Below, piece after piece: positions 8,901 through 33,109 of a stretch of DNA of 45,874 bases. The notes below the pieces were generated by a model. That model was not told where the DNA came from. It made no database searches and saw only the letters and a list, made by a program, of their open reading frames with translations. Every line of letters starts with the position of its first letter. Within the stretch, counting starts at the first letter, position 1. A program made the translations under genes and the position numbers. The stretch is from NCBI GenBank assembly GCA_964364855.1, contig CAYINU010000004.1, positions 1-45,874 on the forward strand, written 5' to 3'. Source of the stretch: an uncultured Candidatus Marinamargulisbacteria bacterium (GTDB lineage Bacteria > Margulisbacteria > Marinamargulisbacteria > CAYINU01).

Positions 8901-11900
8901 GGCGTCGAGCAAGAATTTATAGGTTCCCGCCAACCGGCCCAGACGCAGATCCGCTGCTTCATCGGTAGTCCCCGATTTCTGTCTTTCTTCGCGGTCTTTT
9001 TCGGCTTCTTCGAAATTTTTGACAATGCTAGTCAAGGCCATGAGGGCTATCGCCGCAAACTTCTGGCCCCAACCTTCATTTCCGCGGCCTGCATGATGAA
9101 TGGCCGTGGTCAAATGCGGCGCCTGGGTAAACATGCGGTTCAAGATATCTTGAGAGAAGGGATCCCCCTTTTTTACCAACTCCACGCCAAATTCGGTGAG
9201 GGCTTTGTCCACCTCGGTGGTCAGGGACTGCAACGCCGCAGTTTGTGGGGACAGCGGCCCTAGGGCTCCCTGCGCATCATTGAGCACATTCGAAAATCCC
9301 AGAACGTGATCCAAATTGAACTGATCGGGGGTTACATTTTGCAGGTCACGGATACGGTCCGAAAACCGGGCCAGGGCCGGATCTTGCGCCAGGTTAGACA
9401 ATCCGTCCAACCCGGATTGGTAGCTGGTCCACACCCGCTCACGAACCGCATCGGTACCCAGGTTCATCAAGTCCTCTTTGGTAATACTACTTATCGCCAG
9501 ACTTTGGATGGCTGAGGGTTGGGTGTTTAGCCATGGGTCAAAAGCAGCAAAAGCCTGATTTGGAGGGAATGCTTTCGAGAGGGCCGTGCGCAAGGCCCCA
9601 GCACCGGTCGGGGTTGCAGCCATCATTTCCTCTATCATCCGGTCGACAAAGTCCTGGGGTTGCAGTTGCTGACTGAGATTTTGCAGAATGTGATCCATTT
9701 GGGCCGGATTATGTTGATTTAAAATTTGGGCAATCGGGCCGAGAGCGCCACGAAGTTCGACAGAAGGTGGCTGTTCTGCAGACAGCTGAACACAGAAATT
9801 ACCAAAATTGTGAAGTGCTTGCCCTCCTACCGCAAGAGGCCTGGGGTCACCAAGCTCTCCCAGACGCTGGACCAGTTCACGAAGCGAGCCCGCATGTGTT
9901 TGTGGATCCGCAAGCCAACCCATAGCGGTTTGCGCAGCCATTCGCCGGTCCTGTAGGTCGGCAGGATCAAAAATATCGTCCAATACCCTGGCACCCGGCG
10001 ATAACCCAAGGTCATGCAAAGGCAGAACCTGCGGCCGCTGTGCCAAGGTACCCGTGGCATTAAACGCCGCTGTGTAAGGCGTGACCAATTTGGCAGGCAA
10101 GTGGCTCACCAATGCGCCCGTGGGATCGGCCAAGGGACCCAGCACCCGGGGCATAAATTGCCGCGAGGCCACCTCTGCCAGCAGACGGGGATCATGGTGT
10201 TGGATCGCATCCAAACCCGTTCGCAGTTCATTCAATTGATGGGCATCAAAGCGCGTTTCCATATCCCCTAACACCTGAGTCAGGACCGAGACCCGGGTCG
10301 TCGGTGGCAGACTGTCCAATACAGCCGTGGTTAACTCGCCATGGCCGGACTCTATCAACTGCCGGACCACCCGAACCTGACTGTTAGTCTGCAAAGACCC
10401 CATCATATGCCGGGCCACAGGGCTGCTGTTAAGGTGATCCGCCAAGCGTAAAACATCCGCTGCCGTCGGATATGCCCCCGTGACCAAGTCGTTTACAACT
10501 TTGGCATCTTTTACCGTGTTATATAGCAATTTCTCTAATTTACCCAAACCTCCCAATTGTTCGGGTGAAGCGCCATTTAGGGCACCAGTCGCAATGGCTC
10601 TTACTCTGTCGGGCTTAATATTCCCTGCGGCCGCAAGCGCTTGTACGCTGGGTAGCGCGAGAATATTGTCCACATCAAACTGGTTTGCAGCCAATGCCCT
10701 TCCAATCCCATCCCGAATCCCGAAAATCGAATTTGGGCCAGTGGCCGCGTCGAATGCCGCCTCGGCGTCTGGCTGACTGTCCAATAGTGTTTTGGAGCGT
10801 TTCATTAGATCCTCAGGTCTATCGAGGAGAGTATCAAACATCATCCGCCGCATGACGGACTGAGGTCCGGTTCTCACGCTGATGGCCTGGGTAACGAATC
10901 TGGCCGTCTGGAAATCGCGGACAATGTCGGTTACCGCCCCCCGTACCCACCCCGCGGAGCGGGCATCTAGCTTACTGGTGGCCGCCGTAATGGCCGCTTG
11001 TAGCTGGGGCATGGTGGATGCCGCCATGATCTGCTTTGCACTTTCCGCGGCACCGGTGGGGTCCCCCAACTGGGTCAGCATCTTCGCCAGCGCAGTTTGG
11101 ATGCGTTCTCCCTGCTCTTTAATCACTACCTTGGATCCCGTTACTGAATGAGCCCGATAGGCCCTGAGCTGCTCTTCGGTCATCCCGGCTCCAAACTGTC
11201 CCACTTTTTGTTGGAGTCTCCCCAGCGCCCCTTCAGCCTCAGTCAGCAGATGTTGTCCGGCCAGCCGAGCCTTCTGATTCCAATTCATCAATCGCATGTC
11301 CCGACCTGCACGCCCAAACTGGCCTACAGCACCGGGGGTGGCGGTGGAGGGATCCGAGACGATCGTTGCAAGGGGATTGAAAGCTCCCTCCCGGGGGAGC
11401 GGCTGCGCACCTTCATCGATGCGCTTGAGACAGTTTGCCAGACTGGCACTGCGTTCCCCCTCGTTGGCAAATCGCATCCCAGTCTGCAGCTCGGTCATCC
11501 GGCGTCGGAAGGTCGGATTTTGGGTCAGATCAATTCCGTTCTTGGATAAAAATGCCACCATATCCTTTAAATGCTTTTCAGGGACTTTAGCCCCGGCATA
11601 GACCATCATACTGATGTCATCGGCCAAGGCAGACCCCAACACGTGGTCTTTGGCCATAGTTGAAAGGCTATCGTAGGACAGGACTTTGTCGCCCTTCATG
11701 GCCTCCCTCGCCCGTTTGGCAACGTCGGAAAAATCCGTTCCGGTCGTCTTGCCCAGCGCGGAGAAATACCGATCGATTTCATCGGGGTTTTGGATCAGCG
11801 TGTCTATGTCAATGCCCAGTTTCTGGTTGGCTGCATCCATTTTGTCCGTCAAGCGTTTTGCGTTTTTCCCATAAAACGAATAGGTGCTTTTGTACAAGGT

Positions 11901-14900
11901 TTGGTGATCGTAAAGGACACGTTTATCAAACCCGGTTCGCCCCGTCATACCCCACATTTCCTGGCTCAATTGGCGCCAGTTGCTAAACTGACCCGGAATA
12001 CCCAGAAGGGTCTTGAGCTTGGTTTTAAATTGGTTTCTGCGAAAGGTGGTTTCGTAGTCTTTGGCGCGCTCCGCGGCTTCCATCAGACATCCCATGCGCA
12101 CCGGATCTGCCGCATGCATTTGGTCAAACGCATCTCGCACCCGCTCCACAATATCTGCATCGCCGCGCCCTGCCCATTTAAGCTTGCCGTAAATGGTGGT
12201 CGATCCCAACATATTCCACGCCAGGCCAGGCTTACGCATGGCCACCGACGCCTGGGGCATTTTTTCCATAAACCGCAACATGCCTTCGGCATCCAACTTG
12301 GTAACGCCATGGGCATCGGGGGGGGAGGTGAAGGCCTTGACCACCAGCTCCATTTTTCCCAACGGGCTGGAGTCATCTGCAGCCAGTACGTTGGCAGCCA
12401 GCTGGCGAATAGTGTCATCCGAGCTCCGCATCAGCTCGGCATACAGCCCGGTAATGCGGGCAGCGGATCCACCACCATCGCGTAAAGCTACCGTTTCACG
12501 ACGGGATACGGTGGCCATGATCTGAGCCAAATCTTTGGTGATGTTATTGATTTGGGCATCGGTGAAGCCCGTCATCAATGCGCTCAACTGCGACATCACC
12601 TGGGCACGGGTGGCCTCATTACCTTCGGACGCCAGGATGGCGACAAAAGATCCCGCCGTCGAAGAGGTGTAGTTTTGGAAAAAGTCGCTGAGAGGGGTAT
12701 TGAATCCGGACATATTCAGGAAGGCTACTTTTAACTGGCCTCTCAAACCGCTGGCTTGCAACGCGCCCTTTTCCTCGTCTGCCAAGATCTTCAATGCCTT
12801 TGCGTACGTTGTTTTTTCCTTCATAAACGCCACGAGCGCGGCCTGTTGGGCCTCTGAAGAAAGGCCTTCCAGATTGGGAAAGGCCGGTTCACCGTCCTGC
12901 AGCACTTTTGTCAGGGTCCGGCCGTCGCCCATATCCTTATTAAGTTTCGCCGATGCGTCGTAGTCTTTGGTGTCTGGGCGTTTTTGGACACGGGCCATAG
13001 CACGGTCGACAAGCCGTTTCCCCACGCCCCGGCCCACATTCTCACCCACTTTTACGCTTAAGCGGTCCGCATCCCAAGTTGCCGATGTCACGATACCGTG
13101 ACGGAGCGCGGCTCCGAAATTTTTTCTGCCCACCATCTTCTCGTTCATCACATTCCGCATAAAGCGCTGATAGTCATTCATCGCAGCTTGGAACGCCTCG
13201 GGGGTTTTTGCGGAAATGGCTTTTTCCAGTAGCTCCGTGGCCTTGTTATTCAACCACTCACCCTTGGGGGCTGCGCTACTGCCACCCTGCTTTTTGACCT
13301 GCCCCGCTAACTTTTCCAGAGCCGCTTTTATGGCATTGGCAAAAACAGAGATGTTTCCTGCGATCTTGGTCCAAAAATCCGTCATGGTATTTGCGTTTTG
13401 CGCTGCAAAAAGCGAGCGGTACCAAGAGGCCTCCATGGCACCCACCGCGATGGCCGCAGCTCCGGTAGGGGTAGCCGAAGCCCCCATCATGACGCCGATC
13501 TCCGCCCCGAATTGGGCCGCCCGTTGGCCATTACGGCGATACTGCTGGGCCGCCTCTTTTATTTTCTGGGTAAATACTTCATGCAGAATCGTTCTGACGA
13601 GGTCCTGGATCAGGGCCATCGTGACATTTACGATAATGGCCACCGCTCGCTTGGCCCGGCTGGCATGCCCCGCAGCAGTTGCCGATGGCGATGGCCCAGC
13701 CGCGGAGGGGGTGGTCGTCGTGGTGGCGGGTGCAGGCACGGCATCCGCTGCCACAGTGGTGGCTGTCGGCGTGCCATCCGCTGCCGCCACATCCGCTGCC
13801 ACGGTCTGTCCGGTAGACTCGACGCCCTTGGTGGATGTTTTGGCTGTAGCCGTCGATCCCGCACCCAAGGTCGCCATCTGGATAATAAACATAATAATGG
13901 CCACGACCAGCTCGATACCGGCCAAAACCGCGTCTCGCCGGCTGCTGTAGCGTTCGTTGGTAATACGGTTGATCAGTTCGTCCTTGGCCTGGATATTGGC
14001 AAACTGAAATTCCGAAACGCTTTGCTGGTACTTCACCATGTTGCTCAATACACCCATGGGCAAACCGGCCACGCCGCCCCCGGACAAAGCGCTCGCCACA
14101 TCCGTGATCATGGCAAGTACCGTCTCTACCGCCCGCAAAATGGCGGTTCGCACCAGTTGGTTATTGCGAATGGCGATCTTGGTAGCAGCCCAGTTTTCCC
14201 AGTTCATATTGACACCGGCAAATCCATTGGTGGAGTTGCCATACATCACACGGCGGTCGGACCGGTTTTCGTACAACGATCCGATTAAGCGAAAATCTTC
14301 CGTAACGTTACCGATAGCCGCACTGGCTGATTCAAAGAATCCATCTCCTGTGGGCGTATACACCGTTTGGGTAGAGGACCCATATACCGAACCCAAGGTC
14401 GTAGCATTGCTCTCTAGCGGGGCTATCGCCCACCCGTGAGTCCCGGAAAAGATGATATTCGAGAGCGGCTTGCCGATGGCAGAAGTCAGCATGAATCCGA
14501 ACAACATGTTGTAGTCCGAACGGGCATATTCCATGGACGCATTAAACTGCATATTGTTGAGTTCTCCACGATCCGTGGCCAACATCTTCATATAGCCGAG
14601 ACTTTCCATCCCCAGCTGACCGTGCCGCTCTACCGCGGCCTGGGCATAGTTTGCGGAGTCCAGTGACATCGTCGCCCGTCCTTTTACTTGCGCGGCAACT
14701 GACATGATCATGGAGGCAACATAGCTTTGTGCAAACGCGCGGGCAAATCGTCGCATCTGGATATCGGCCAAGCGTTTTGCCGCTTGATTGAAAAAGTCAT
14801 AGTCCACGCCCCCCGCGAGGTTCCCCCCCGTCGTACCCGCAGACGGGGCCACGCCGTCGCTAACACCCGGACGAATGACAGTGCCAGAGAGCCCGTAGGC

Positions 14901-17900
14901 AGAGTCCCCCGTCGCGATCAAGTCGCGGTTAGAGGCCTCCCGCAAGATGTTGAGTTCTTCCCATTGGTCATACAGGTCGGGTTGGGTTTGACGATTATAA
15001 GGGTTGGCTGCCGCCAACCCAAAATTCGAGCCTCCCAGGGCACCTGGGTTGCAGTTACCCGAAGAATAGGGGTTGTAGTTGTAGTTTTCCCGGATCGCAT
15101 TCGCAGGACCTGCCGTCTGGCCCACGCCAGGCCATAGGTTCCAAAAAGAGTTTCTAAATTGCACATTTTTTTGGTATCGGGTTTCGGCCACGCGGGTATT
15201 GGTACGATTGGCCCAAACCAACTGGTTCAGGTCAAAATTGACCAATTGCATCACGGTGCTGAGCATACCAAATCGTTCTTCGATAATGTCTTTTTCCTTG
15301 CCGCCCCACTCCGCTTTTTGACGTCCGGCCATATCGGCAGCAGCGGTGCGGATGGCATCTGCGATGAGCATCTGAACCATGACCCAGGATCGGATGGCCT
15401 CCTGAGCCAATTGCAGGCGGATGCGAATTTGCATTTGGCTATTGCGGTTGATGGATAGGCGGCCTCCTCCGACATTGATCATTTGATTCTCCAGGTTGAT
15501 CATGTCGTTCATTGCCGCTCGTTCAGCATTGAGGTTGCGGCGCAATTGACGCTCCGCATGGGTTAGCCCCGGTGCATTTTCATCCAACGCCGGAACCCCA
15601 TATCCCGCATTGAGCAGTTGCTGGTAGTTGGCCTGATTCAATTGATCCGGGGCAGCTTCTTGGGCCGTGCCGTTCGCCAAATCCCGGCTGCGGGCAGACT
15701 CCCCGATGCCAAATAACCCCGCCACAAAACCACACACAATGGCGATAACACCCACAACGGCAGCGGCTACCGCACCCACTCCCGACATCGCCAACCCCGC
15801 AGCAACAATACCCAGCACTAAAGCAATAGCATTAAAAATGCTTTGGAAAGCCCGCAGGATCCGCCGTCCCAAGTCTTGGAGCTGATGAAGTTCTATTTCC
15901 ATACTCTTGATGGTATTTCGAAGGCTCATTTCAGTTTGGGAATAGGTTTGTACCTTGCTCAGCCAGGTTTGCTCGAGGTTCATGCGGGCTTGCTCAAACG
16001 AATAGGCGGCCATTCCGACCTTTTTGCCGGATGTGACTTTCCGGCCTGTGCCCGCCGCATCAGCCAGCTCCTGGGCCGCACCTTCGATCGTCGTGATCAA
16101 AATTTCTTGAACCATAAACCAGGCTTTGCGATGCTCGTTCATGATTTGAATGGATTGACGGGTATTGGCAAACAAGCCTGAATTGAATCGGTTGTACCCT
16201 GCACTACTGCCCGCGGTGGTATCCACATGGCCATCGGCCGAGAAAACGGCATTCGTTCGGATTTGGTCTCGGGCGGACTGTTGATTGATCGTGCCTGTCT
16301 GATTAAAGGCACCGCCCAAATTGTTGGCTTGGCTGCCGTCAGCCAGATATTCGGCGCCCAGCATCTGGATGCGGGTGTTGGTCACGGACCGGCGGTTGGT
16401 TTGCACGATATTGGCATAGGCCGTCGTGGCAGCAATCTTCTCCATTTGTTTTTGAATTTTATCTTCATCCGCTAGCCAAATGTCTTTGCATGCCGAATTC
16501 ATGCCGGAGTGGGCTTCTTCAATCTCCTCCATCGCCTCGCGGTATTCGGCCTCGTTGTAATCGTCGATGGCCTGGACAAAAAGATCCTGCATTTGGCCAC
16601 TGGTCTCACTGACTTTGCTGGTATATTCACCAAACTTTTCTTGGACCTTTTTGCGCGCAGCCGAATGACCTTCCCCATACACACCGGTCATGTCGAAAGC
16701 CGATTTTTCGATAATATCGGCGACCAGATACGCAATCGACATAAACGTGGTCAAAATCTGCATCTGCATCAAGATGCGCTGATAGTCGGTTTGGATGCGG
16801 TCATAGTTTAAAAGGCGGTACCGGGTATTTCCTGAAGCAGGCGCGTAACTCCAATAGGGGCTGTTGGTGTTTTCGGTGTTGAGATTATTAAAGTAATTGT
16901 TAATGTTGGTCTGGAGGTTGCCAAACGAATTGGCCCCGGAAAACATGGCTGCCTCGATTTGCCGGAGCAGCGGAGGAGTCGTATTTTGCGAGGCAGTCGA
17001 AAAGCCGAGCAAGTCGTTTTGAGAGATGCCATCGCCCAAAACGGTGCCGTTGACCGAATAGGTGAAATAGAGCCGATACAGGCTGGATACGGTGGGTGCC
17101 GGCGCCTCGCTGACAGAGCCAATGACTTGACCCGTGGTCAAGTCCAGCGCGTGCACATTCCCTTGCGAATCGGTGTAGTTCAAGACGGTATGGCCCACTC
17201 CGGTATTCGTATTCAGATAAGCGGCCACCGAAACACGGCCTGCCGCCTCGGGGCCCAAGGCCGCAGCTGCCAGGCTGGCAGCCAGATTGGTCAGATCCTC
17301 GCAGTCGCCACCGCCCCGCAAAATCGTTTCTGCCGCAGTCGACCAATGGTCTTGGGCGTCGGCTTGGTATTGAAAATGGCTGACGACGTGATTGTAAATG
17401 GCCGTCATGATCTGGTCTTCGGTCAGGCCCATCATGCCGTTGGGAGGTGGGAAAATCTCCTGCAACAGAGACACCACAGCCGGGTCATCGGGATCGATAA
17501 ACGTATGGGATTGGGTGAAATCGATAGCCGGGGGTGGCAGGACCAAATTGGAAACCACATCCTGAAATCGGATGGTAGTGGAACCCGCCAAATTGGGCCG
17601 GGAGAGTGCAGTCGGTAACGTGCTGGTATCGATATAAGACGCCGCGGAAAACGGCACCACATTTCCGTTAAGGTTCACCGTTAGGACTTGTCCGTCTTGT
17701 AATTGAACCTGGATGCCCTGCTCGACTTGTCCGAAGTGGGTAACCCCCGAGAACAACTGAGACCCGGCAATCGTCCCGTCCAGCCGAAGCCGTTCGGCCA
17801 CTTGCGCCTGCAGATCCCGAATCTGAGTGGGCGTGAGCTGACCACGCAGGGCTTGGACCGACTGGAATGCCCGCCCCAAAATCCCCGCCGGGGTGGTATC

Positions 17901-18215: not shown

Positions 18216-19025
18216 TTAGGTCGACTGATCTATGATCGGCATTTCAAAGGCAGATTCTTGCATCGCGATCCATTGGTTGTACGGGTCCAAATAATCCTTC
18301 ATATCTGCAGACGGCGAAATGGTCTTTTCCACCACAAAATTGACAATGGCCGGCGTCACCATACTGGCAAAGGGGATGCCGTCTTTTCCCTTGATCTTGA
18401 CCAGCATCACGGGCCGCTGATGTTTGATGGCCATCATCAGTGAAAACGGGATGGGTCCCAGACCCACCCGCGCCCTTGCGCCCTCGACCAAGTTGAACCC
18501 CCGGGCCAGGTAGGGCTCCACGAAAAACGACTGATGTTGGTAGTCATGGATGGAAAACGGCTGGGGTTCGCAATACCCCATGATGTGGGTCAAAAAGTCC
18601 CGATCCGATTTCGCCACCGACCGCATAATGGCCCGCATGACAAAAAACAACGGGCAATTGGCATAGCGTAGTTGCGTCACACGAGACGTAAACCCCGGCG
18701 GAACCATCACCAGCTTTTTGTAGCCCAGTGCAGTGAAACCCAGCAGATATTCCACCGGGTCCTCGTAGGCGAATAGAATAATGGCCCCCTTCGCACGGGT
18801 CAGCGCCGGATCCCGCCGGACAAAAATGCTGTTAAAGGCAAAATACAGCCAGAGCCACCTCCGGTAAAACCGCGACAGGCGTTCGTGGTTGCCGGTAACC
18901 CGGTACATGATCCACATCGGCAGATAGGTCCCCCCAAAAACCAATACAAAAGGCACATGCTGCAAAAACAGCAAATAGGTAAAAAGGGTATCTGCTACCG
19001 TCCGCCATAACCAGGTAAAAATCAT
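18216..19025 (-). CDS. membrane protein with degenerate PlsC/LPLAT acyltransferase-like region, ~269 aa
   Basis: Start re-called to ATG 19025 (ATGA overlap with the upstream small ORF; track start 19115). N-terminal TM region; later segments VEGAR and MMAIKHQRPVMLVKIKG resemble PlsC PEGTR and LA...PIVPV.I.G blocks, but there is no HxxxxD. Confidence 0.6.
   Translation of the reverse strand: MIFTWLWRTVADTLFTYLLFLQHVPFVLVFGGTYLPMWIMYRVTGNHERLSRFYRRWLWLYFAFNSIFVRRDPALTRAKGAIILFAYEDPVEYLLGFTALGYKKLVMVPPGFTSRVTQLRYANCPLFFVMRAIMRSVAKSDRDFLTHIMGYCEPQPFSIHDYQHQSFFVEPYLARGFNLVEGARARVGLGPIPFSLMMAIKHQRPVMLVKIKGKDGIPFASMVTPAIVNFVVEKTISPSADMKDYLDPYNQWIAMQESAFEMPIIDQST
18233..18262 (-). promoter_or_regulatory. 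candidate sigma-28-family promoter for the giant gene
   Basis: TGCAAG-N15-TGCCGATCA within the 3' end of the upstream gene, ~35 nt before the TTG. The -10 part resembles FliA/SigD GCCGATAA. Confidence 0.4.
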
Positions 19026-19159
19026 GACAGCAGATATCCCACCAGGACCTTCAGCACCAAGATCAAGCCAATCACCAGACCGATAATGGTCGGCAATACC
19101 CGTAAAAACCGGCAAAAATAGAGCCGGACCAGGTCTTCGCGTTTAATCCGGTAGGTCAT
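19022..19159 (-). CDS. 45-aa small membrane protein
   Basis: MTYRIKREDLVRLYFCRFLRVLPTIIGLVIGLILVLKVLVGYLLS; AAAGG 7 nt upstream; overlaps the stop of the upstream gene and the ATG of the downstream gene. Confidence 0.5.
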   Translation of the reverse strand: MTYRIKREDLVRLYFCRFLRVLPTIIGLVIGLILVLKVLVGYLLS

Positions 19160-19987: not shown

Positions 19988-22900
19988 TCAATACATCGGT
20001 CCGCGGGAATACATCGGTCGGAGGGCAGTCGCAGCAGGCTGGCTCCGAATTCCGATAGAGATGTAATATTTCTGTAACAACTCCATCCCCGGATACTCCG
20101 GCAACCTTCCTGGGATATCTGGTTTCCAATCTCCGCTGACAAGGTAAGATTTAAGATTCGCCAGCTGACGGTCCGAAGCCCGGGTATCCATGGCCTCCAA
20201 GGTCGCACCGACCCGCGCTATTACGCCTTGTTCCCAGTCGCGCACTGCCGGCGCCTTCAAGTCGGAGCCATCCGGCAAAGGAATACCCGCTTCCTGCATT
20301 GTGCGTAGGGCATACGTCAGGCGGTCAATATTATTGCAAAAGCTCATATGTTGGGGCACCTGCAGCCGCGCAACACGCAGATGGGCTTCCATTTCCGCCA
20401 TCATTTCCGCGCGCTGTTGGGCTATTTGTCTCTCGAACGCTTGAAGGTCGGTCTCCCGCTGTTGCTGCAATGCGGCCAATTGGGTTCGGAGATCGGCATT
20501 TTCTGTTTGTAGTCTAGCGTTTTCCGGTCGGAGTACGTCATTTTCTTCCCTGACCGGTCTCAGCTGTGCTTGACTCTCAGTCAGCTCTCTTTGAAGTCTT
20601 TCAAGGGTCTGTTGTAATGCCTCGTTTTGTTGTTGTGCAGCTGCTAATACTTTGTCAATTCGTTGCTGCGCAGCCCGGGCATCGGTAAGTTGTTGTGTCA
20701 ATTGGTCTCTCTCTTTCTCCGACGCCCGCAAGCGAACTGCAAGATCCGCGTTGGTGGTGTCCACATCCGTTAACCGGCGTACCGCTGTTTCCGCTGCTTG
20801 CAGCTTGTCAGTTTGCTCAGCCATTTGCTGTTTCAAATCAGCCAGTTCAACAGCAGCCTTATTCGCAGCGGCCTCAGCTGCTGCGTGTTGCTGTTCCAGC
20901 TCGCGCTGATGTTGGGCAGCGGTCGTATCTTTTTCTTGTACTAACTGTTCAAGGTGGACAGAAAGGTCTTTAGCCTGCTGTTCCGCTGCACGTTGGGCTT
21001 GTACGACTTCCCGAATTCGTCCGTTCAAGGCTTCGTTGTCACTCCGCACAGTGGCACTATCATTTCGAGCTGTGGCCAATTCCCTTTGAAGTAGCGCCAA
21101 AGTATGTCCAGCAGAAGCGGCTGTTGCCCGCGCGGCTGCCCGCTGCATAACGAACCGTGCATTTTCTGTTGCAGATCTGGCAGCCTGCGCCTGTACTGCT
21201 ACAACTTGTTCGGCAATAACGCTATATCTCACTTCTCTCTCTTCGATTTCAACTTGAAGCTCGTTAATTTGCCTGTGATATTCTTGCTGTTGGGTTTGCA
21301 CTGTCTCCTCTAGTTTAGTAGCCCGTCCCCTCGCTTGATCCACTTGCTCTCTGACGCCCTCAAGCGCTGCCAGTTTAGCTTGAAGCACTCTTATTTCGTC
21401 GTGTTTGCCACTCAGTTCGTTCCGTATTCGATCCAAATCTTCTTGCAGAGCCTTAATGGTTTGGTGAGCTTTATCAAGTTGCTGGGCTATCTGCAGCGTC
21501 TGCCAGTCCGTTTGGACCCCAACATCTGCCAGCGTTAATCCCCCATCTCTTTTGGGAGAGAAGTCTGCATCTCGCAGCTCGTCCCCAAGAGATGCGCCTG
21601 AGGTATCTACCTCAGGCCGCTGGTCTGCAGCTTGCGCTTCAGCCCATTGCCTTTCAAGGGCTGCTTGAAACTGCTGTGCTAGTGTGACTTTCACCTGGGC
21701 CTCTTCCAACCGATGTTGCAACTCCGTTACTTGTTCCTTGAACAGAAGCGCCGATTCAAGTTCTCTGGTTAGTTTGTTAACTGCCTCTTCAAAGTTGCTC
21801 GCTTTCGATATCAACTGTGCATGTTTAAGTTCTAAATCGCGCAGCCGGCTATTAGACTTCCTCAACTCCTCCGAAAGGCTATCCCTCTCCCTCTCGGTTC
21901 CTTTAAGTCTGGCCAGAAGCGCACCCTCTCTCTGCTGTGCCTCCCGCCGCGGAGTCAGCACTTGTTGGCGAAGCTCGTCTATTCCCAGTTCACGTTCGCG
22001 TAGCAATTGAGTGCTGTCGGCCAGCCTACGTACCAAGGCTTCGTTTTCACGTCTACTCGCCACAATTAGAGCCGCTTGTTCTTGGACCTGAGCCTGAACC
22101 TCTTCCAAATTGATCTCAGTGTTCGCGACGAGCTTCTCCATCTGTTGGAGGGTTCTCCGAAGGGCTGTTACTGTTTTTTCAGCTGTCTCCGCCCTTTCGG
22201 TCAATGTGGCGTTGGCGGCCTTTTCATCTTCTAGCGCTCGTACTACCCGTTCCAAGTCACTAAAGACAACCTGTGCTTCTTGAAGGCCCTCTTCTAACGC
22301 CGCATTACGATCACGCAGTTTCTGACTTCTAGTTTCTACTTCCTCAACATGCTGTTTCGCAACCGTTACAACTTTCATGATCAGCTCACGGATCACGTCC
22401 GGGTTTACACCGGTCTCTCTGGCAAGCGCAGAGATGGCGGCCTCGGTCCCATCATTAACACTGCTGGGTTCCTGCTCCTCTTCCCATGCAAGCCGAGTCG
22501 ATGGTCTCTGTGATGCAATCTGCTCGGCTATCGTTTTGCCATCGGGCAACGACACTTGTTCCAAAAGCCTTTTTTGTATCAAAGCCTGCCTCATTAACCC
22601 ATCACGTTCATCTAACTCGGCTTGATAATGGGCTGCTCCAATCTGTCCTATCAAGGCTCGACATAAGGTTGTTCTCTCACCGGGAATTCCCAAATCGGTA
22701 GGATATTGCGTCATGAGATCATTAAGTATTTCCAGCCGTTCGGTAGAAGATTGACGTTTCTTATTGTCAAGTACCTCCCCGAGGTTCCGTCTAAATTCGT
22801 CATTATCCCGCTTGGCATTTTTCATATGAGCCAAAAGACGGTTGACAGTACCAAGCTCCGCTATGAGCATCTCCGCTAGCTTATTAGCCGTGCTAACTCC

Positions 22901-25172: not shown

Positions 25173-25500
25173 CGTTGCGAATGGTTTCCAAAAAAGTCGC
25201 GGTTTTTCCCAACAATTGCCCTGCGACTTCCAGCAGGATGATTTGATCCTCTCTGGGCTGGGCCAAGAGGGTCCGAAAATCCGCGTCCAGCCGCGTCAGA
25301 TCGTCATGATAATGTTGCAGTTCGTGCTTTAACGCGGCATAGGCCGTGCGCTGCGGCTCGGGCAGGGGATGTTGCACGATGTGGGATACACTGGCCTGAA
25401 ATTCGGCCACCACGCGGCGGTACTTGTCCACCGTCTCCATCGTGGACCGGATCAAGCCTGCAATCCGGTCGACCACGTCCCGAGAGATCGTCTCGCCCAT
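25150..25500 (-). CDS. small helical-bundle/coiled-coil protein, 116 aa
   Basis: TAATG overlap with the hook-like gene; amphipathic helices. Size is chaperone-like (inference only). Confidence 0.7.
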   Translation of the reverse strand: MGETISRDVVDRIAGLIRSTMETVDKYRRVVAEFQASVSHIVQHPLPEPQRTAYAALKHELQHYHDDLTRLDADFRTLLAQPREDQIILLEVAGQLLGKTATFLETIRNDDRYRLE

Positions 25501-26387
25501 TACGAGACTTTGCTGATGAAGTCGGTAATCACCTTGTTGATCGTCGTCAGCGACGACAGCACCGCGTTATACCCCCGCTGTAGCTGAATGCCCAGCACGG
25601 TGATATCGGCAGGGTTCACGTTCGATGCCTCTGCCGCAGTGCCTTGGACGGTGGAAAAACCGGCCTCACCGGACCGGCCATACGCGATGGGGTTTCCCGA
25701 TCCTGTAGTAGGCGAATACGCACTGCCTTCGATGGGCGCGATCTTGGAGGGATTGGCAAACTTGGCCAAGCCCAGTTGGAATAACGCTGTCCCGGGAGGG
25801 ATGATGGTATTCGCTTCCTGGCGCTGGCGGGCAGTCTCTCTGGCATTGAAATTGGTCATCAGCACACCATCGGTTTCAAAACCGACATCAAAAAGGTCTT
25901 GCGTTGTCGGATCGAGAGTGATGGGAACCAATCTTGAGGTATCCGCCACACCGTTAACGACGCGGTATCCCATGACCGAACGACCGAAACTGTCTTGTAA
26001 CCGTCCCGACGAGTCAAAGGTAAAATCCGATTTTCGTTTGTAGTAAAACTGGCTGCCAATCGCGGCTTGGACCACGAAAAAGTCCTGACCGATAACAGCC
26101 GCATTTAACGCGCGTCCGGCCTTGATGGACCCTTGTGTAAAATTGATACCGGTCGGAATCAGAGTAAGCCCGGATGGAATGTTGGCCGTTGCAGGCGCAG
26201 CCACACCACCGTGGGGACTGGTACCGCCGGATACGGCCGTCATGGATTTGGAAAACAGAGACTGGAACGTGTAATCCGTTCCTTTATAGGCGTCGTCTTG
26301 GAAATGTTGTAAGTCAGCAGACAGGATTTGAATAGCATTGACGAAAGCCTGGAGGGAGTTTTGCGTCGTCGCGAACATATCAAACAT
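25500..26387 (-). CDS. divergent flagellar hook/basal-body rod protein (FlgE/FlgF/FlgG family), 295 aa
   Basis: FTQGSI...LNAAVIGQDFFVVQ...YYKRKSDFTFDSSGRLQDSFGRSVMGY; GLAKFANPSKI; C-terminal EASNVN...LQRGYNAVLSSLTTINKVI matches the LExSNVD...QRxYxANxxxIxTxD pattern. AGGAG RBS. Confidence 0.85.
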   Translation of the reverse strand: MFDMFATTQNSLQAFVNAIQILSADLQHFQDDAYKGTDYTFQSLFSKSMTAVSGGTSPHGGVAAPATANIPSGLTLIPTGINFTQGSIKAGRALNAAVIGQDFFVVQAAIGSQFYYKRKSDFTFDSSGRLQDSFGRSVMGYRVVNGVADTSRLVPITLDPTTQDLFDVGFETDGVLMTNFNARETARQRQEANTIIPPGTALFQLGLAKFANPSKIAPIEGSAYSPTTGSGNPIAYGRSGEAGFSTVQGTAAEASNVNPADITVLGIQLQRGYNAVLSSLTTINKVITDFISKVS

Positions 26388-26399
26388 GAAAGGTCTCCT

Positions 26400-28208
26400 T
26401 TAGGCCGCTTCGTCTACTGCGGGAGTCGAGATACGACGAACCGTTTGCCCCACTTGGATAAAAATATCCTCCTCTATACTAGACTCTTCCTTCAATCGGT
26501 TCAAGATTTGGATAAGCTGCTTACGCTTTCGGGACAAGCCGATCGTTTCAGACACTTCCATGCGCAGCTCCAGGTCATACAGCTCCTGGCGTACGGTATC
26601 AAACATTTCTCGGTTGGCTTTATTTTGCATGCTGGCTATCTCGGACTGGCTAACCGGTTCCCCCATATCAGACAGGCGGTTCAGGATGTCCGTCTTTTTG
26701 GTATTTAATATGTCAAAATCGTCGCCTTTGAGCTCAAACAGCGTGGCCTGCTCCAAACACAGTTTGTAAAACTCATCCAGCATGGCACCGCGGGCCAACA
26801 GCTGGCCCTCTTTTTCGACTTGGGACAGAACCTGATCTTCGATACCCAATTTGATCAGGCCGTTTTTGGCCCGGAAAATCTTAAAAGACAGCTCCAACCG
26901 CGCACGCAAACCGGGATTTAGGGCGCGGGCCATATAGAGCAGTCGCAATTTTTCTTCCAATTTTTCTTGGGCAGTCAAAATACGCACCTCAGGCGGCTTT
27001 TTTTGCTCTCCAGACTCGTGATCAAAAAAGCGCATCCCCCCCGAAGATACCCCCATACCCGCGGCCATGGCGGCAAAATCTGCCGCCCCCAGACTGTGGA
27101 TATAACGGGTTACCCGTTCCATTATGGGAGCGGTTAACACCGGTTCGCCCGTGATTTTTTCCGATATTTTTTGCAAATGCAGAATTTCCTTTTCAAACTT
27201 CGGCCAATCCTGGTCTCCGATATAACGGGAGAAAATATTGCCGGCTTCCTCGGCAACAAATCCTTTTAATTCGCTTTGAAACGTTTCATGTTCTTTGACA
27301 AACAATTGCTGGAAAGGCAATCGGCCAGCCGAGTACTCGTCCTCGGACTGGTAGGTATCCAGCATATGCTTCATGTCACGATAGGCCTGGACGCCTTCCG
27401 CATCACCTTTGGTATGGCGGGCAAAGTAGTAACGCATGACGTTTTTACGCACCAAATAGCTCAACGTATCCGAAGTCGCCTGTGCAACCCGAGTTTCCAC
27501 GGACACGCGCATGTCTTGGGTCACGCCCTGTTTTTCCATTTCCCCCCGTGAGGCGATGAGGGCTTTTTTATTTTTCTCATTTTTGTCCAGCAAATATCGG
27601 GCAAAGGCGGTGGAATAGGAGCGCACGGCCGTCTGCACATCGGACTTGGCAAATAGCCCTGTGGTGTCCCGACTGTCGTCGTGGCGGCTCATCTGCCGCT
27701 GTTGTTCCAGGGTCTGAGCGGTCCCCGGCATGGGAGCACTTTTGTCTTTGTGCGGGTTCCGAGCGCCTACCTGGCGGGAGTCAGACTCCTGGCGTTGCTT
27801 GCGTTGCAGCTGCTCGCTACTACCGGCCTGGGCTGAAACCGTCGCGGCATCCTTGTAATTTTCCTTTGATCCAAACCATTTCTTGGTTTCGGCTTCCAGC
27901 TCTTTTTCCAATTTTTTGCTCAAGACATTTTTTTGTTGCGTTTTCAGACGAGTCTGATCTTGCTCCGAAAAAATCTGGGCCAACGTGGCTTCCCGGTCAC
28001 CAAAAATCAGGTCCGAGGTCTTGTGCTCTTTTTTAGCCTGGGTTTTCTCTTCTTCTTCTTGTTTGGTTTGGCGCTGCAACAGCTGCTCCAGCGTCTGTGG
28101 CTTGGCATCTGCGTCAACCGATTTTTGCTTCTCAGGCCGAACGTCATCGTCATTCCATTTTCGCCCCTCAGAAACCCGCCCCGATGACCCCCCGAAGATT
28201 TCAGCCAT
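26400..28208 (-). CDS. hypothetical protein, charged disordered N-terminus + helical repeats, 602 aa
   Basis: Long ORF with an 8-nt overlap with the GT2 gene and a GAGG RBS; no family recognised. Confidence 0.8.
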   Translation of the reverse strand: MAEIFGGSSGRVSEGRKWNDDDVRPEKQKSVDADAKPQTLEQLLQRQTKQEEEEKTQAKKEHKTSDLIFGDREATLAQIFSEQDQTRLKTQQKNVLSKKLEKELEAETKKWFGSKENYKDAATVSAQAGSSEQLQRKQRQESDSRQVGARNPHKDKSAPMPGTAQTLEQQRQMSRHDDSRDTTGLFAKSDVQTAVRSYSTAFARYLLDKNEKNKKALIASRGEMEKQGVTQDMRVSVETRVAQATSDTLSYLVRKNVMRYYFARHTKGDAEGVQAYRDMKHMLDTYQSEDEYSAGRLPFQQLFVKEHETFQSELKGFVAEEAGNIFSRYIGDQDWPKFEKEILHLQKISEKITGEPVLTAPIMERVTRYIHSLGAADFAAMAAGMGVSSGGMRFFDHESGEQKKPPEVRILTAQEKLEEKLRLLYMARALNPGLRARLELSFKIFRAKNGLIKLGIEDQVLSQVEKEGQLLARGAMLDEFYKLCLEQATLFELKGDDFDILNTKKTDILNRLSDMGEPVSQSEIASMQNKANREMFDTVRQELYDLELRMEVSETIGLSRKRKQLIQILNRLKEESSIEEDIFIQVGQTVRRISTPAVDEAA

Positions 28209-29322
28209 GGGCAGTCCTCAGCACACGATCCAGTGCCTCTTCCAGCTCGGGTATAGTCGCGATTTGCCGGGCCATCAGATAGTGCTTTTTGGCCTCATCA
28301 GGATGGTGGGCTAGTTCAAAAATGAAACCCAAGTAAAAATGGGGCTGAAAAACCCGGTCATAGGGGTTGGACTCCAACAGCATATCGTACACGGGTGTTT
28401 TTTCGGTCAGTACTTTTTGAAAGGCATCGTGTGCGGCCTGAAATTCCCGCCGCTGCAAGGCCGTTTTTCCCTTGATGAGATACAATTCCTTGCTCAGTTT
28501 GCCAAAGCGTTTTTCGATCAGCGAGACAATGCGCCGGACCCGGTCGTAGCGACCCTGATCCAGCAAAAAGCGGCATAGATAGTAATAGTGGTTCACTTTC
28601 CGCACGCCTTCTCTTAGGGCTCGTACGGATTTGATGTAATAGTGCATCGCCTTTTTGTTATCCGAGAGCTGGCGGTACCGCTCGGCCATCTGCAAATACA
28701 TATAGGCATGGTCCCGCCATTGGTGGGGAGGGGTCTCGTTTTCGATCTGCTCATAAATGCGGACGTAGTTGCGTACCTTGCGGTCATGCAGTGCGTCGTG
28801 CACACCCTGATAATTGCCCCAATGGTATATGGCCGCGCCGCGGATTTGGGTACGGATGCTAAGCTCCTCTGGCGGATAGCCTGCCAATGACTCGTGAATA
28901 CGATCGATGTAGTGATATCCCTGGTCCGTGCGAAACAGTTTTTCCCGGAAGTTACACAATACGTTTTTTTCGAATCCGTCCAACGTATTTTGATAAACCG
29001 GCAACCAAAAAATGGTGCGATCCGTGTGCTTTACCAGCCGTTCCAGTTTTTTTAGCGAACGGGTTGAAATATAGTCATCGGCATCCAAAAACAACACCCA
29101 GGGCGTCTTGATTTTGGCCAATAAGGCATTCCGCGCCGCAGCAAAGTCCGCGGTCCACTTGAACGCGTGCACCGTCACTCCCCTCTCCTGCAAAAACGCT
29201 TGTGTGCCATCGGTTGACCCCGTATCGAGCACAACGATAGGCAAGCCGGATTTGAGCAAGGGTGGCAACGTGTGAGCCAAGATAAATGTTTCGTTTTTGG
29301 CCAGCATGGCAATGGTGATCAT
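28201..29322 (-). CDS. glycosyltransferase family 2 with C-terminal TPR repeats, 373 aa
   Basis: LAKNE, VLDTGSTDGT, WTADFAAARN, WVLFLDADD, RIHE, IYHWG; TPR-like helices (AYMYLQMAERY...KAMHYY, PHFYLGFIFELAHHPDEAKKHY). Confidence 0.9.
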   Translation of the reverse strand: MITIAMLAKNETFILAHTLPPLLKSGLPIVVLDTGSTDGTQAFLQERGVTVHAFKWTADFAAARNALLAKIKTPWVLFLDADDYISTRSLKKLERLVKHTDRTIFWLPVYQNTLDGFEKNVLCNFREKLFRTDQGYHYIDRIHESLAGYPPEELSIRTQIRGAAIYHWGNYQGVHDALHDRKVRNYVRIYEQIENETPPHQWRDHAYMYLQMAERYRQLSDNKKAMHYYIKSVRALREGVRKVNHYYYLCRFLLDQGRYDRVRRIVSLIEKRFGKLSKELYLIKGKTALQRREFQAAHDAFQKVLTEKTPVYDMLLESNPYDRVFQPHFYLGFIFELAHHPDEAKKHYLMARQIATIPELEEALDRVLRTAHG

Positions 29323-30296
29323 ACCGTTTCCCCCAGCGTCTGATCGGCTTGTTCGTAGTCCACTTTCTCACCGGGAATTTGATGAATTTTATGGATATCC
29401 TGCCCAACTTTGGTCATGCGCGCCAGAATGCGGTCCACGTATAGTTTAAGCTTATCGATTTGTTTTTTAATATCGGATTTGGTCAATGTCTCAACCGGCC
29501 CGCTCACCCAGTGCCGACGCGCACCTGGCTTGGGATCATCCAGCACGAAATGGATTTGGTATTCCTTGTAGTTTAGGTCATTTTGAAGCGGCATCAAAAT
29601 CTTCTGATATTGTTCGGCTTGGATATGCAGAATCGACTCCGGGCCATAGCACTCTTGCTTGGTTAGTTTCTGAACTTGTTCCATGAGGGTTTTTCGAACC
29701 TGCAAAAAGGTACGTTTTCTTCTGCGGTCCCGTCTGGAACTGGAAAAAATATCAACCAAAGCCAAATTATATTCGTTTTGGTCAAACAAGGCTTTGTTTT
29801 CAGCCAAGGCCTCGTCCAAGGCCTCTCGTTGGAGTTTGCCCAAGTCATCCGGAGTCGCGCCCAGCTTGAGCAGCAGCGTCATATCGCGACCTGCCCGCAA
29901 GGCCGCAAATTTGGCCAACAGCAAATTCATGGACCGGGAGGCCTTAAAACTTTCCTTGTATCGCTGACGAAGGGCTTCCAAATTATCCGCAAACCCGATC
30001 AGAAAAGACAAAGATCGCCATACCGCGGACGCATTGAACTTAAACGTCTCCAAAATCCCGGATGCCAGGTGGTCCTGAGCCTGGATTGTATACTGCCCCT
30101 GCTCGTCCTTATTCCAAGCCAGCCCCGCCTGCTTCATCTGCTCCATCGGGTGGATACGCGCCTGGTCTTTAAACGCGTCGAGCTGTGCCTGTTGCTCGGT
30201 TTGACTCTGTTTTTTTTCGGCCTCTGTGGGCGTAGCGCTATGCGAACGCCGGGCACCGTTGAGGTACGAAGAAGGCGAAAAAGAAAACTCGCTCAT
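29319..30296 (-). CDS. hypothetical helical protein, 325 aa
   Basis: GGGAGG RBS; Ser-rich N-terminus; ATGA overlap with the GT2 gene. Confidence 0.8.
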   Translation of the reverse strand: MSEFSFSPSSYLNGARRSHSATPTEAEKKQSQTEQQAQLDAFKDQARIHPMEQMKQAGLAWNKDEQGQYTIQAQDHLASGILETFKFNASAVWRSLSFLIGFADNLEALRQRYKESFKASRSMNLLLAKFAALRAGRDMTLLLKLGATPDDLGKLQREALDEALAENKALFDQNEYNLALVDIFSSSRRDRRRKRTFLQVRKTLMEQVQKLTKQECYGPESILHIQAEQYQKILMPLQNDLNYKEYQIHFVLDDPKPGARRHWVSGPVETLTKSDIKKQIDKLKLYVDRILARMTKVGQDIHKIHQIPGEKVDYEQADQTLGETV

Positions 30297-30317
30297 AAAC
30301 GCCCTCCCGGCGAGTCA

Positions 30318-33109
30318 TCACTCGCTTTTCTGATCACGCTCACGCTCAAGCCTGCGGAGCTCATCTGCCACTTTTTGACTGTGCTCACGTTCTTGTGCTT
30401 CCCGCCGGCGCGCAGCTTCAAAAGTCTGGGCACTTTGCCGATTCCGCCCATCTTCTTCAGCGACGGCCCGTTGCTCTGCTGCTTCCTCTTCTTTTTTTTC
30501 GGCTTCCTTCTGATCATAGCGGTCCACTTCACGCCGATACTCGGTCTGTCGGTTCCAGTTATACGCCGCTGTCATCAATTGTTCCTCAGCCACCCCTTGA
30601 CGAGAAATGTAGGTGAAGGCCGCCCCGGAAAACGCGGGGTTTTCCTGCACCTCAGGAACTTGACCGCGCCATCGTGTCTGGCTGCCGATCGGGGCTGCGG
30701 GAAACAAGTGTCCCCGCGCATCCGAATGAACATAGTAAGCGTTAAGCCGATTGGCTGAAAATGCACGGTCAAAATTGACGGATTGAATGGTACCTGTAGT
30801 CGTGTTCAACGCATATTCATCACCGTCCGGGAACGGCACGGCAACGGTCATCATGGCATTTGCATCCGTATTGCGGCCTTGTCCGTCCAAAATAGGAGGA
30901 CGTTCCGCAACCATCACAGGTGGCTGACGCCGTCCTTTGTCAAATGCATAGCCCACCCCGGTTCCGGCCATCGTCACATAGCCATCATACATAGGCATGG
31001 TGTTATCGGTAGTCAGAATGCTATGGGGAATAAAGTCCCAAGACAGATCATTAAATCCGGTTTTGGAGCCCAAAGACGCGGTATCAAACCCCAAAATAGG
31101 GGTACGCATTTTTTCCGCGCCGGAGTCCCGAGATGGACTACGAAGCAACTCGGCAATGGGTGCCAGTAGGTTTACGGCCTTGAGGCCTTTTTTTGAAATA
31201 TCCTGCATCGTTTCGGTCAGGTTCGCAAAGTTACCGTTGGCCGGAATTTTTCTGGCCTCTTCAAATACGGCGAATTGTTTTTGGTAGAGGGTTTCTAACT
31301 TACGCTTGATTTCGATGTGGTTGTTTGCCGACATATCGGTCGATTCGGAGGAAAGATCATTATAGGCATCTTGGGCGTCTTTGACTGCTTTCCCCAACCC
31401 ACGGTCATAGCCTGTTGCCGCCCCACCCAGATCCGCCAATTGCCTCTCGATTTCACGTTTTCTACTGAGCGGCGTAGACGAGCTGGCAGCTTCCTGGTTT
31501 AAGATGGATACATAGTGGTCATAAGCGGCCTTTGGCGCGGCACTCACGGTACCCAGCGCCAGCTCATCCATCATATATTTAAAGCCCGCCTTAACCGCAG
31601 CCCGTTGGAACAGCATCGCCTCCGGTCCCTCGGTATAGGAGGTACTAGCAACCCTTACAGTGACTCCGCCAGACTCTGTCTTTGTAACCGCGCCCCACCC
31701 GTAACTGTCGTTTGCTAGGGTATCAAAGGCGTTAAATGTCGTATGGGCCGTTTCAAAAAGCAGCATATTGTAAAACGAGGCCGTCGGATCGGTTTGCTTC
31801 GCCACGGTATCGTACCAGTTTTTGATGGACTCCGATTGACGGCGCGTGACTTTGAGCATCTGATCCCAGTCAGAGGCAGATGCGGTTTTGGTCATGACAC
31901 GCAAAACCGAGCCGGTGGGTACGTTCGCATAGTCGGACGCGTCCAACTCGGCCACTGATAAAGAGGATCCCGCCGGCGCCTCCAGGGGAAGATGTTTGGC
32001 AGGCCCCAATATCCGCCGATAGGCTTCCAGCACCCGCCGTTTGCTTTCTAGTAACGATTTTAGAAAATAGTAAAACTTTTCGCCATCCGGCACGCCATTG
32101 GCAATCGTGTCCGAGTCGCGGATCGCGCTCTCTAATCCTAAGTCTTTGTTTTTTACCCATTTGGACCAGGCACCAGACTGAATGATTTCAAAATAATTGG
32201 GCGCTTGGGTTTCGACGGTATCCTTCAAATAGGGATGGGCACCACCGGCACCGAAATTTTCCCAAATGTCGGGGTGAGCCGCGTCGACGACCCACGTTCC
32301 AGAAAAGGGATTGACCACGACATGTGGGATCCCAGAAACGTTATGAAAACCATCTCTGTCAAAACCAAACTTATTGTCCTTCATCAGAACGGCCTGACGA
32401 CTAATCGTGTCCATCACCTGATTGAGCTTGTTCCAATCTGCAGCCACGGCAGCCGCACCCTCAGTATCGACGGCAAATGCGGAGTTATATCCCGAAGACA
32501 CGCCAAAGTCCCACTTCGACCGATTGCTATCGGAAATCTCCAAACTGTTCCACGTGTTTAAGGTATTGTATTGGGGATTCTCGTACCCACCCGCAATACC
32601 ACGAAAAGGATTGATATTATCCAAACGGCCATAGCTGGTTCCCTCGTAGGAATACCCACCCAAGATAGGGGTTGAAGAGTGTATGGAGCTGAAACGCCCG
32701 TGCCCATAATAATTCCCGCGGCCATCGTTGCCAAAGCTCCCGTGGATGTCGTTGTCATCTGCAAAATATCGCGCAACCAAGTTCGGGATTTCCGGAAGGC
32801 CAGGAATAAAATTCCGGGCAGGTGCCGGCAATTCCGGACTGAGGTTCTCGCTGTCCGGGCGAAGCGCCAAAAAGTGCGCATCCGTCCACCATGCAAAGTT
32901 ATTTTGCAAAAAACCCTGATAATACGACCCTGTCATTCCTTTTGCAGGATCGTTGGCAATGAGAGCCACGCGTTCCGGAGAGAAAAACTTGAGCAACTCC
33001 GTCCCGAAATGGGTGGTTACCGTCGCGGCTTTAAAGGCATCCGCATTACCGGTTTCTTTTACCTGCGGCGGGGGGGGGCGATTGGAAAAAAGACGGGGCG
33101 AAGTCCCAT
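30318..33109 (-). CDS. large hypothetical protein (~930 aa if the G9 tract at 33070-33078 is G10; 892 aa from TTG 32996); frameshifted as assembled
   Basis: ATG 33109 with an AAAAGGTGG RBS reads MGLRPVFFPIAPPRRR-stop. One extra base in the tract joins it to the long frame (...PPPPQVKETGNADAFKAATVTTHFGTELLKFF). Gly/Asn/aromatic-rich body and a highly charged C-terminal helix. Confidence 0.75.
33070..33078. repeat. G9 homopolymer (C9 on the coding strand) at the frameshift site
   Basis: acctgcggc GGGGGGGGG cgattgg read directly from the sequence. Confidence 0.9.

Follow-up and report, generated by a model that had tools for sequence, protein, structure and literature searches.

A five-unit, predicted helical repeat with associated hydrophobic segments in a family of giant proteins from Marinamargulisbacteria

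A giant protein with an internal five-unit repeat is encoded on a 45,874-nucleotide stretch of DNA (hereafter the window; contig CAYINU010000004.1, positions 1 to 45,874, assembly GCA_964364855.1) from an uncultured Candidatus Marinamargulisbacteria bacterium. The largest open reading frame (ORF) of the window (2913-18197, minus strand, as for every feature given below) specifies a protein of 5,094 amino acids (aa), of which a module at aa 425-1450 (13848..16925) carries the five units and is the sole part conserved family-wide at BLAST level. Unit 1 (aa 460-569; 16491..16820) displays the basic pattern of a putative helix A, a Gly turn, and a putative helix B, and is followed by unit 2 (aa 666-774; 15876..16202), unit 3 (aa 911-1020; 15138..15467), unit 4 (aa 1130-1232; 14502..14810), and unit 5 (aa 1328-1431; 13905..14216). 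A Gly/Ala-rich hydrophobic stretch, predicted to form a hairpin, lies directly behind unit 2 (aa 786-832; 15702..15842), and a second hydrophobic segment of one membrane-helix length closes unit 5 (aa 1424-1447; 13857..13928). A conserved predicted helix (aa 880-913; 15459..15560) ends with a V-G-G-G-R motif leading into unit 3; in the homologue alignment this region reads MIDVGGGR, MVDVGGGR, or LLNLGAGR. The five helix starts listed in an earlier note on this DNA, which had been made from the sequence alone, were found exactly where it had placed them, at N464, N672, N917, D1132, and N1332.

The relationship among the units becomes apparent only in profile comparisons and, in part, in Smith-Waterman alignment calibrated by shuffling. 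BLASTP of the segment against itself gave no off-diagonal match, and Smith-Waterman comparison against 300 shuffles yielded three significant pairs out of ten (U1-U3, z 7.0; U2-U3, z 6.8; U4-U5, z 3.3), with the remaining seven pairs not significant (z -0.3 to 2.4). From the single sequence, units 1-3 and units 4-5 therefore form two separate groups. Unit profiles were then taken as sub-alignments of an alignment of 15 homologues (A1). By profile-profile comparison with hhalign, all ten unit pairs align in register and score 24.9-45.2 (unit 1 versus unit 3, 41.4), against null scores of 10.0-17.7 for reversed profiles and a maximum of 16.1 for column-shuffled ones (12 shuffles each). Hidden Markov models (HMMs) built with one unit type left out recovered four of the five units in place (U3, E 5e-10; U2, E 8e-9; U5, E 9e-7; U4, E 2e-4), with U1 unrecovered (E 0.088), and found nothing better than E 0.06 elsewhere in the 5,094 aa. 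With profile pairs exceeding the reversed and shuffled nulls and most units recovered by models that had not seen them, the internal repeats are statistically significant and, as judged from these alignments, the five-unit repeat is real and ancient. The earlier description of five tandem repeats of ~200-245 aa is thereby upheld in the number and kinship of the units and revised in their extent: the homologous core spans only ~105-110 aa, and, with units spaced 200-245 aa apart, what lies between one core and the next is either hydrophobic segment or linker without homology among periods.

An alignment of 56 units from >20 loci (A2) exhibits alpha-helical periodicity in column hydrophobicity (95-110 degrees) over columns 25-48 and 55-96, with the Gly-rich turn at columns 47-48. 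The succession of a helix, a Gly-rich turn, and a long helix that had been read from the letters alone is thus borne out by helical periodicity on both sides of the turn. These data fit a helix-turn-helix, whose anatomy would consist of a helix A of ~40 aa with an amphipathic C-terminal half, the Gly-rich turn, and a helix B of ~50 aa.

Hydrophobic stretches were defined by a 19-aa Kyte-Doolittle mean above 1.6. Six stretches of the giant pass this threshold; only those at aa 780-836 (maximum 2.71) and aa 1420-1451 (maximum 2.49) are strong, the other four reaching merely 1.62-1.75. The two strong stretches coincide with the hydrophobic segments that had been noticed behind units 2 and 5, the strings of which start at aa 791 and aa 1424. 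The hairpin at aa 786-832 is long enough for two membrane helices, contains six small-xxx-small-xxx-small motifs, and is flanked by Arg on both sides. The position homologous to this hairpin is hydrophobic in the homologues P0003, P0004, and P0009, and that homologous to the segment closing unit 5 is hydrophobic in P0003, P0005, P0006, and P0009. Unit 4 lacks a strong hydrophobic tail in the query and possesses one in P0003, P0004, P0005, and P0006. Across seven homologues, every strong stretch starts at, or a few residues beyond, the end of a unit, with the carrier varying among U2, U3, U4, and U5: segments follow U2, U4, and U5 in P0003; U2 and U4 in P0004; U4 and U5 in P0005; U4 and U5 in P0006 (with a weak one behind U2); and U2, U3, and U5 in P0009, and are weak throughout in P0010 and P0014. 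Only three stretches lie outside the module in these homologues, all weak (maximum 1.61-1.67), far from the module, and confined to P0004 and P0010. Distant relatives in three further genomes of the class (G003, G025, and G011) likewise carry strong segments directly behind units.

Segment length in the family ranges from 20 to 56 aa. A Pro or Gly occupies the central part of those measuring 29-51 aa, and multiple small-xxx-small motifs occur in those rich in Gly/Ala. Insertion free energies were summed in simplified form, with per-residue values after the Hessa 2005 scale and without position, moment, or length terms. On this scale the family segments range from -2.3 to +2.3 kcal/mol, compared with -2.7 to +0.9 kcal/mol for 21 inner-membrane helices native to this genome and 0.76 and -2.81 kcal/mol for IpaB. 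Given this overlap with native helices and IpaB, the segments can be membrane segments; the values do not tell export from residence. Because the number of segments differs among orthologues, full membrane passes would place the ~3,500-aa C-terminus on differing sides of the membrane, a problem that hairpins entering and leaving on one side would avoid.

The comparisons mark the module as the core that is conserved in a family of giant proteins, which is lineage-specific and lacks annotation. A HMMER search with aa 450-1649 against 1.84 billion representative proteins retrieved 16 sequences at E <= 0.001, the query included; four of the ten family members looked up carry a name, which is "hypothetical protein" of Candidatus Margulisiibacteriota or Marinamargulisbacteria. 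The same 1,200-aa query matches 11 of 146 genomes of the phylum, all within the class of the window. RecA of the window has its nearest matches in records from this phylum, at 72% and 68% identity. In BLASTP, five of seven homologues are 21-24% identical over 1,046-1,425 columns spanning aa ~425-1450; the alignment of P0009 begins already at aa 167, and P0010 and P0014 align in pieces only. The C-terminal 3,500 aa gave just two short BLAST matches among the homologues. When the unit profile A2 was applied to a set of 55 genomes of the class (G000, the genome of the window, plus G003-G056), matches were obtained in 33 (13 of the 18 high-quality ones), nearly all inside open frames of ~2,000-7,700 aa, with the few shorter frames mostly on short contigs. 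A word-indexed search at near length returned nothing beyond the giant itself, and a search of 5.8 billion proteins with the unit profile returned three short fragments at near length and, at longer length, two members of the family that were already known; these proteins yielded no family in which the unit stands alone. Searches of the literature on Margulisbacteria found no description of the giant family. Two surveys of giant proteins describe Margulisbacteria as rich in uncharacterized proteins of >5,000 aa (bioRxiv 10.1101/2023.11.21.568195; PMC11573180), and one such family now has a defined, testable core in the form of a five-unit, predicted helical module with putative membrane hairpins.

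Two forms of the giant recur in the class. The query-like form, with five closely spaced units, was found in G005, G049, G050, and G053, and a longer paralogue of ~7,000 aa, in which four units were detected at wide spacing, in G049, G051, G052, G054, and G056; several genomes hold both. The notion that every member has exactly five units was dropped on account of these longer paralogues and of distant relatives with two to four detected units; weak units in either group may escape detection. On some contigs (loci L113-L119 and L123; G049, G050, G054, and G056) two giants occur together with a few small genes between them: the shorter (~4,400-6,300 aa) has five close units, and in the longer (~7,000-7,300 aa) four were detected. 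No paralogue of the giant was found in the genome of the window.

The N-terminus of the giant is polar and lacks a signal-peptide-like hydrophobic stretch, as do the N-termini of its relatives, and Cys accounts for 0.27% of residues versus 0.94% in the long ORFs of the genome. A low-complexity linker (aa 1451-1520; 13638..13847; Ala 30%, Thr 21%, Pro 8.6%) joins the module to the C-terminal 3,574 aa, for which no Pfam or NCBIfam family match was obtained. Upstream of the module, a candidate cysteine-protease core of the transglutaminase-like or LapG-like type (aa 264-360; 17118..17408) was identified below curated cut-offs, with E 0.0025 and 18.5 bits against Pfam Transglut_core (PF01841; cut-off 23) and E 0.0064 and 15.7 bits against NCBIfam LapG (cut-off 320). 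By eye, this region contains G-D-C-E-D...G-H-T...A-L-D, with Cys, His, and Asp at fitting spacing. The same inspection of the homologues found the motif absent in P0004, P0005, and P0006, altered in P0009 (Ser for Cys), and present as a second copy, inserted between units 2 and 3, in P0010.

Comparison with characterized families yielded no assignment. The module has no match in Pfam (E <= 0.01) or NCBIfam, and when the Pfam threshold was relaxed to E <= 10 for four sub-fragments, no SseC/IpaB/YopB, colicin, or other pore family appeared; the only matches were sub-threshold, compositional ones to small membrane proteins. Against the PDB, phmmer gave 0 matches by sequence at E <= 10, and the unit profile retrieved, at a nonsignificant best E of 0.03, the coiled-coil heptad repeats of coronavirus spike. 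For IpaB (sequence from pCP301), hhalign returned a probability of 0.2% with both A2 and A1, a comparison of low power given its single-sequence target. The one flagellin detected in the class (in G006) gave 0.3% against A2, and Pfam gave no Flagellin or Flg match for the giant. Four pieces of the giant matched 0 PHROGs families, and its tested neighbors merely two, both of unknown function, so that no phage context is evident. Neither DUF3491 (PF11996) nor another toxin domain is among the Pfam matches of any piece of the giant, and the ESM Atlas, which does not contain the query, gave no more than a chance-level best score, 0.82, for homologue P0003. As far as sequence comparison reaches, membership in the SctE, colicin, ClyA-type, tape-measure, or flagellin families is not supported.

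The gene lies close to a block of genes with flagellar affinities. Directly upstream, a 299-aa ORF (18216..19115) with N-terminal stretches that look hydrophobic by eye has homologues adjoining giant genes in G005, G049, and G050 (BLASTP E 9e-21 to 3e-13); it has no family match, and a simplified free-energy scan found no window in it at the <= 1.0 kcal/mol membrane-segment threshold. Next comes a 1,057-aa coiled-coil protein (19988-23161) with weak SMC/Rad50-type coiled-coil matches far below cut-offs, which sits between the giant and a hook-like operon block (25500..32996). The latter comprises genes for 892-aa, 325-aa, GT2+TPR, 602-aa, and FlgE/F/G-like (295 aa) proteins. The 295-aa protein matches FlgEFG_subfam at 90.1 bits, above cut-off, and the 892-aa, 325-aa, and 602-aa orphans have no family match. 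The block recurs beside giants of the family, with its order kept in at least nine other genomes, and is co-directional with the giant in G049, as in the window, and divergent from it in G052, G054, G056, G003, G011, G016, G025, and G038. By coordinate comparison, 12 genomes from 10 families have a unit-bearing giant <= 12 kb from their 602-aa orthologue.

On another contig, the 1.88 Mb genome (94.5% complete) holds a full flagellar-type basal-body cluster (FliF, FliE, FlgB, FlgC, FlgF, FlgG, FlgH, FlgI, and FlgA). One FlhA, one FlhB, and one FliM/N are present, the FHIPEP (FlhA/SctV) gene being single, along with three secretins and three TolC-like genes; no match to VirB4, TssC, or Flagellin_N was obtained. 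With the sole FlhA-family gene and the basal-body genes of flagellar type, an injectisome was not found in this 94.5% complete genome. FlhA occurs in 49 of the 55 genomes of the class and Flagellin_N (PF00669) in one (G006, 78% complete); either the filament protein of the class is too divergent to be recognized or the apparatus has no filament. FliG_C and FliG_M gave no match in the genome of the window despite the presence of FliM/N, FliF, and FlhA/B. Reading this as a motor-less apparatus was abandoned when FliG_C-like matches were obtained in 45 of the 55 genomes, several of which, in frames of ~480-500 aa, may be MgtE-like instead of FliG. Since most genomes of the class have such a match, the missing FliG probably reflects an assembly gap.

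The reading that we tentatively prefer, at somewhat below even confidence, is that the giant is an exported protein whose module, specific to this lineage, inserts into membranes. Judging from sequence periodicity, the amphipathic helix pairs would shield the hydrophobic hairpins while the protein is soluble; on contact with a bilayer, the hairpins would enter and exit on the same side, fixing the giant to the membrane and possibly perforating it. A membrane role is suggested because the module, at its unit ends, holds the only strong hydrophobic stretches among the 5,094 aa, and the module is proposed to be the functional core because it is conserved across the family. The giant would most likely be exported rather than resident, as indicated by the polar N-termini devoid of a signal peptide, the low Cys content, and the Ala/Thr/Pro linkers. 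A flagellar-type type III route is possible given the linkage of family genes to the hook-like operon; a precedent is the flagellar type III system of Lysobacter enzymogenes, a bacterium without flagellin, which exports nonflagellar proteins according to PMC7688988. The analysis itself demonstrates the repeat and its conservation, where the hydrophobic segments sit, the synteny, and a lack of detectable kinship to known families; the helix-pair fold, one-sided insertion, export, its route, and any pore are all put forward here as predictions.

Several observations weigh against this proposal. Sequence periodicity is the sole basis for both the helix-pair fold and the proposed shielding of hairpins. 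Given its hydrophobicity, the hairpin behind unit 2 could be delivered by the signal recognition particle (SRP) and Sec to the inner membrane of the producer itself. By their free-energy sums the segments are indistinguishable from native inner-membrane helices, and reported type III substrates with membrane segments tend to moderate hydrophobicity (PMC6110835). The relative in G038 has no strong hydrophobic segment and P0010 has weak ones only. No P/VxLxxP chaperone-binding motif occurs in aa 1-1500 (0, with 0.28 expected from shuffling), and no chaperone gene, including the small TPR type, was found among the neighbors. Synteny with the hook-like operon may be inherited gene order; orthologues of the 602-aa gene are present in 45 of the 55 genomes, compared with 33 for the unit profile, so that the operon is more widespread than the detected giants and strict co-distribution does not hold. 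As indicators of export, a low Cys content and linkers rich in Ala/Thr/Pro are weak.

The main rival, which we judge rather unlikely, casts the segments as resident anchors inserted cotranslationally into the cell's own inner membrane by SRP/YidC/Sec. A giant helical scaffold, cytoplasmic or in part periplasmic, would be held at that membrane by them, perhaps close to the flagellar basal body, in keeping with the linkage to basal-body-related genes and with the conserved 299-aa neighbor, whose N-terminus is hydrophobic by eye. The segments equal the native inner-membrane helices of the genome in hydrophobicity, the Arg residues at both ends of the unit-2 hairpin match what a hairpin with two cytoplasmic ends should show, and no secretion signal is demonstrable. 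Against residence stands the variable number of segments, which, as full passes, would flip the side of the C-terminal 3,500 aa; an extracytoplasmic protein would better explain the Cys depletion and the Ala/Thr/Pro linkers, and strong segments are few or absent in some relatives. The relative in G038, which has none, would suit a protein with no membrane role at all. In such a protein the hydrophobic stretches would be buried inside a large soluble assembly of helices and the repeat would be merely structural, Gly/Ala-rich helices being able to pack in soluble bundles. This is very improbable in view of an uncharged stretch of 47-56 aa with Kyte-Doolittle means up to 2.71, far beyond those of the remaining 4,900 aa, and of its conserved placement directly behind units.

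Domain order invites comparison with AB-type large toxins in the manner of the clostridial toxins and lymphostatin, in which case the N-terminal domain would carry the activity, the Cys-His-Asp core would release it, the hydrophobic module would deliver it, and the long C-terminal region of 3,500 aa would bind the target. An order of activity, protease, and delivery is given for lymphostatin and the large clostridial toxins in PMC12198386, which also describes the delivery domain of lymphostatin as beta-rich, not helical. The protease match falls under both curated cut-offs, its motif is missing in P0004-P0006, Ser-substituted in P0009, and duplicated in P0010, and DUF3491 and other toxin domains went unmatched, all of which render this account improbable. 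Least probable of the readings weighed here is a very divergent SctE (IpaB/YopB/SipB) or pore-colicin homologue concatenated five times, which is close to the single-chain translocon that the earlier note had envisaged. The overall arrangement, in which a hydrophobic hairpin comes after long helices (PMC9993115), and the type III-type export apparatus of the genome speak for such an origin. The absence of a Pfam match at E <= 10, the hhalign result for IpaB, the empty or nonsignificant PDB searches, and the want of a P/VxLxxP motif, an adjoining TPR chaperone gene, or a detectable injectisome speak against it. What survives of the earlier comparison is the layout itself, long amphipathic helices followed by Gly/Ala hydrophobic hairpins, which is conserved; the family assignment is unsupported.

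The known systems closest to the giant resemble it in part. SctE translocators (IpaB, SipB, YopB, and AopB) and the module both display long helices followed by one or more hydrophobic helical hairpins and no Sec signal. As described in PMC9993115, SctE proteins have one or two hydrophobic hairpins, thought to insert spontaneously in the target membrane after export; their layout has been likened to colicin Ia, and some translocators also lack the P/VxLxxP motif. The giant differs in being ten times larger, in carrying five units per chain, in showing no similarity by sequence or profile, in lacking a chaperone-binding motif and a gene for a TPR chaperone, and in belonging to a genome with a flagellar-type apparatus only. 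Alpha-pore toxins (colicin domains; ClyA/YaxAB/XaxAB) share the concept of a soluble helical protein with a hidden hairpin that inserts on membrane contact, according to PMC9993115 (for colicin Ia), PMC5935710, and PMC6086661. Comparison by sequence gave no family or PDB match to them, and such pores assemble from small oligomerizing subunits, whereas the giant combines five diverged units in one 5,094-aa chain. With the large clostridial toxins and lymphostatin LifA/Efa1, which have an N-terminal domain, a cysteine-protease-like domain, and a proposed delivery region (PMC12198386), the giant shares its size. It shares no detected domain with them. Its candidate protease core, a below-cut-off match, is of the transglutaminase/LapG kind, its candidate delivery region is predicted to be helical with hydrophobic hairpins, and its organism, a groundwater bacterium, has no known host.

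Some phage tape-measure proteins, such as T5 Pb2, contain membrane-active segments. These long helical proteins combine hydrophobic, Gly-rich segments with a peptidase-like domain and would resemble the giant in these respects; the giant, as noted, has no PHROGs match.

Should the module insert by itself, it would represent a new alpha-helical membrane-active architecture, with five diverged units in one chain in place of many identical subunits. The link to the hook-like operon, together with flagellin in one of 55 genomes, raises the question of what the flagellar-type export apparatus is used for. A more daring version, to which we give very little credence, makes the giants substrates of a flagellum-derived exporter, with the five units forming a single-chain, pseudo-five-fold tip on a rod or hook and the hairpins entering the membrane of another cell; if true, it would describe an injection or attachment device that evolved from the flagellum independently of the injectisome.

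Two listed ORFs of the window between the coiled-coil gene and the hook-like block (23261-24547 and 24300-25172, minus strand) overlap by ~250 bases. In the first, an APH-type phosphotransferase domain begins at residue 140, so that the true start is probably downstream of the listed TTG. The giant gene itself is represented in environmental data: DNA contigs from groundwater and aquifer metagenomes cover it without indels, and one metatranscriptomic library contributed 9 small contigs on the gene, most of which is left uncovered, a hint of transcription that could also stem from DNA carry-over. One DNA run (X3) has contigs with clustered base differences at 13863-13995 and 14553-14632, in the unit 4-5 part of the module, and the run that holds the gene best (X1) has none, which suggests that a different sample contains strains with variant modules.

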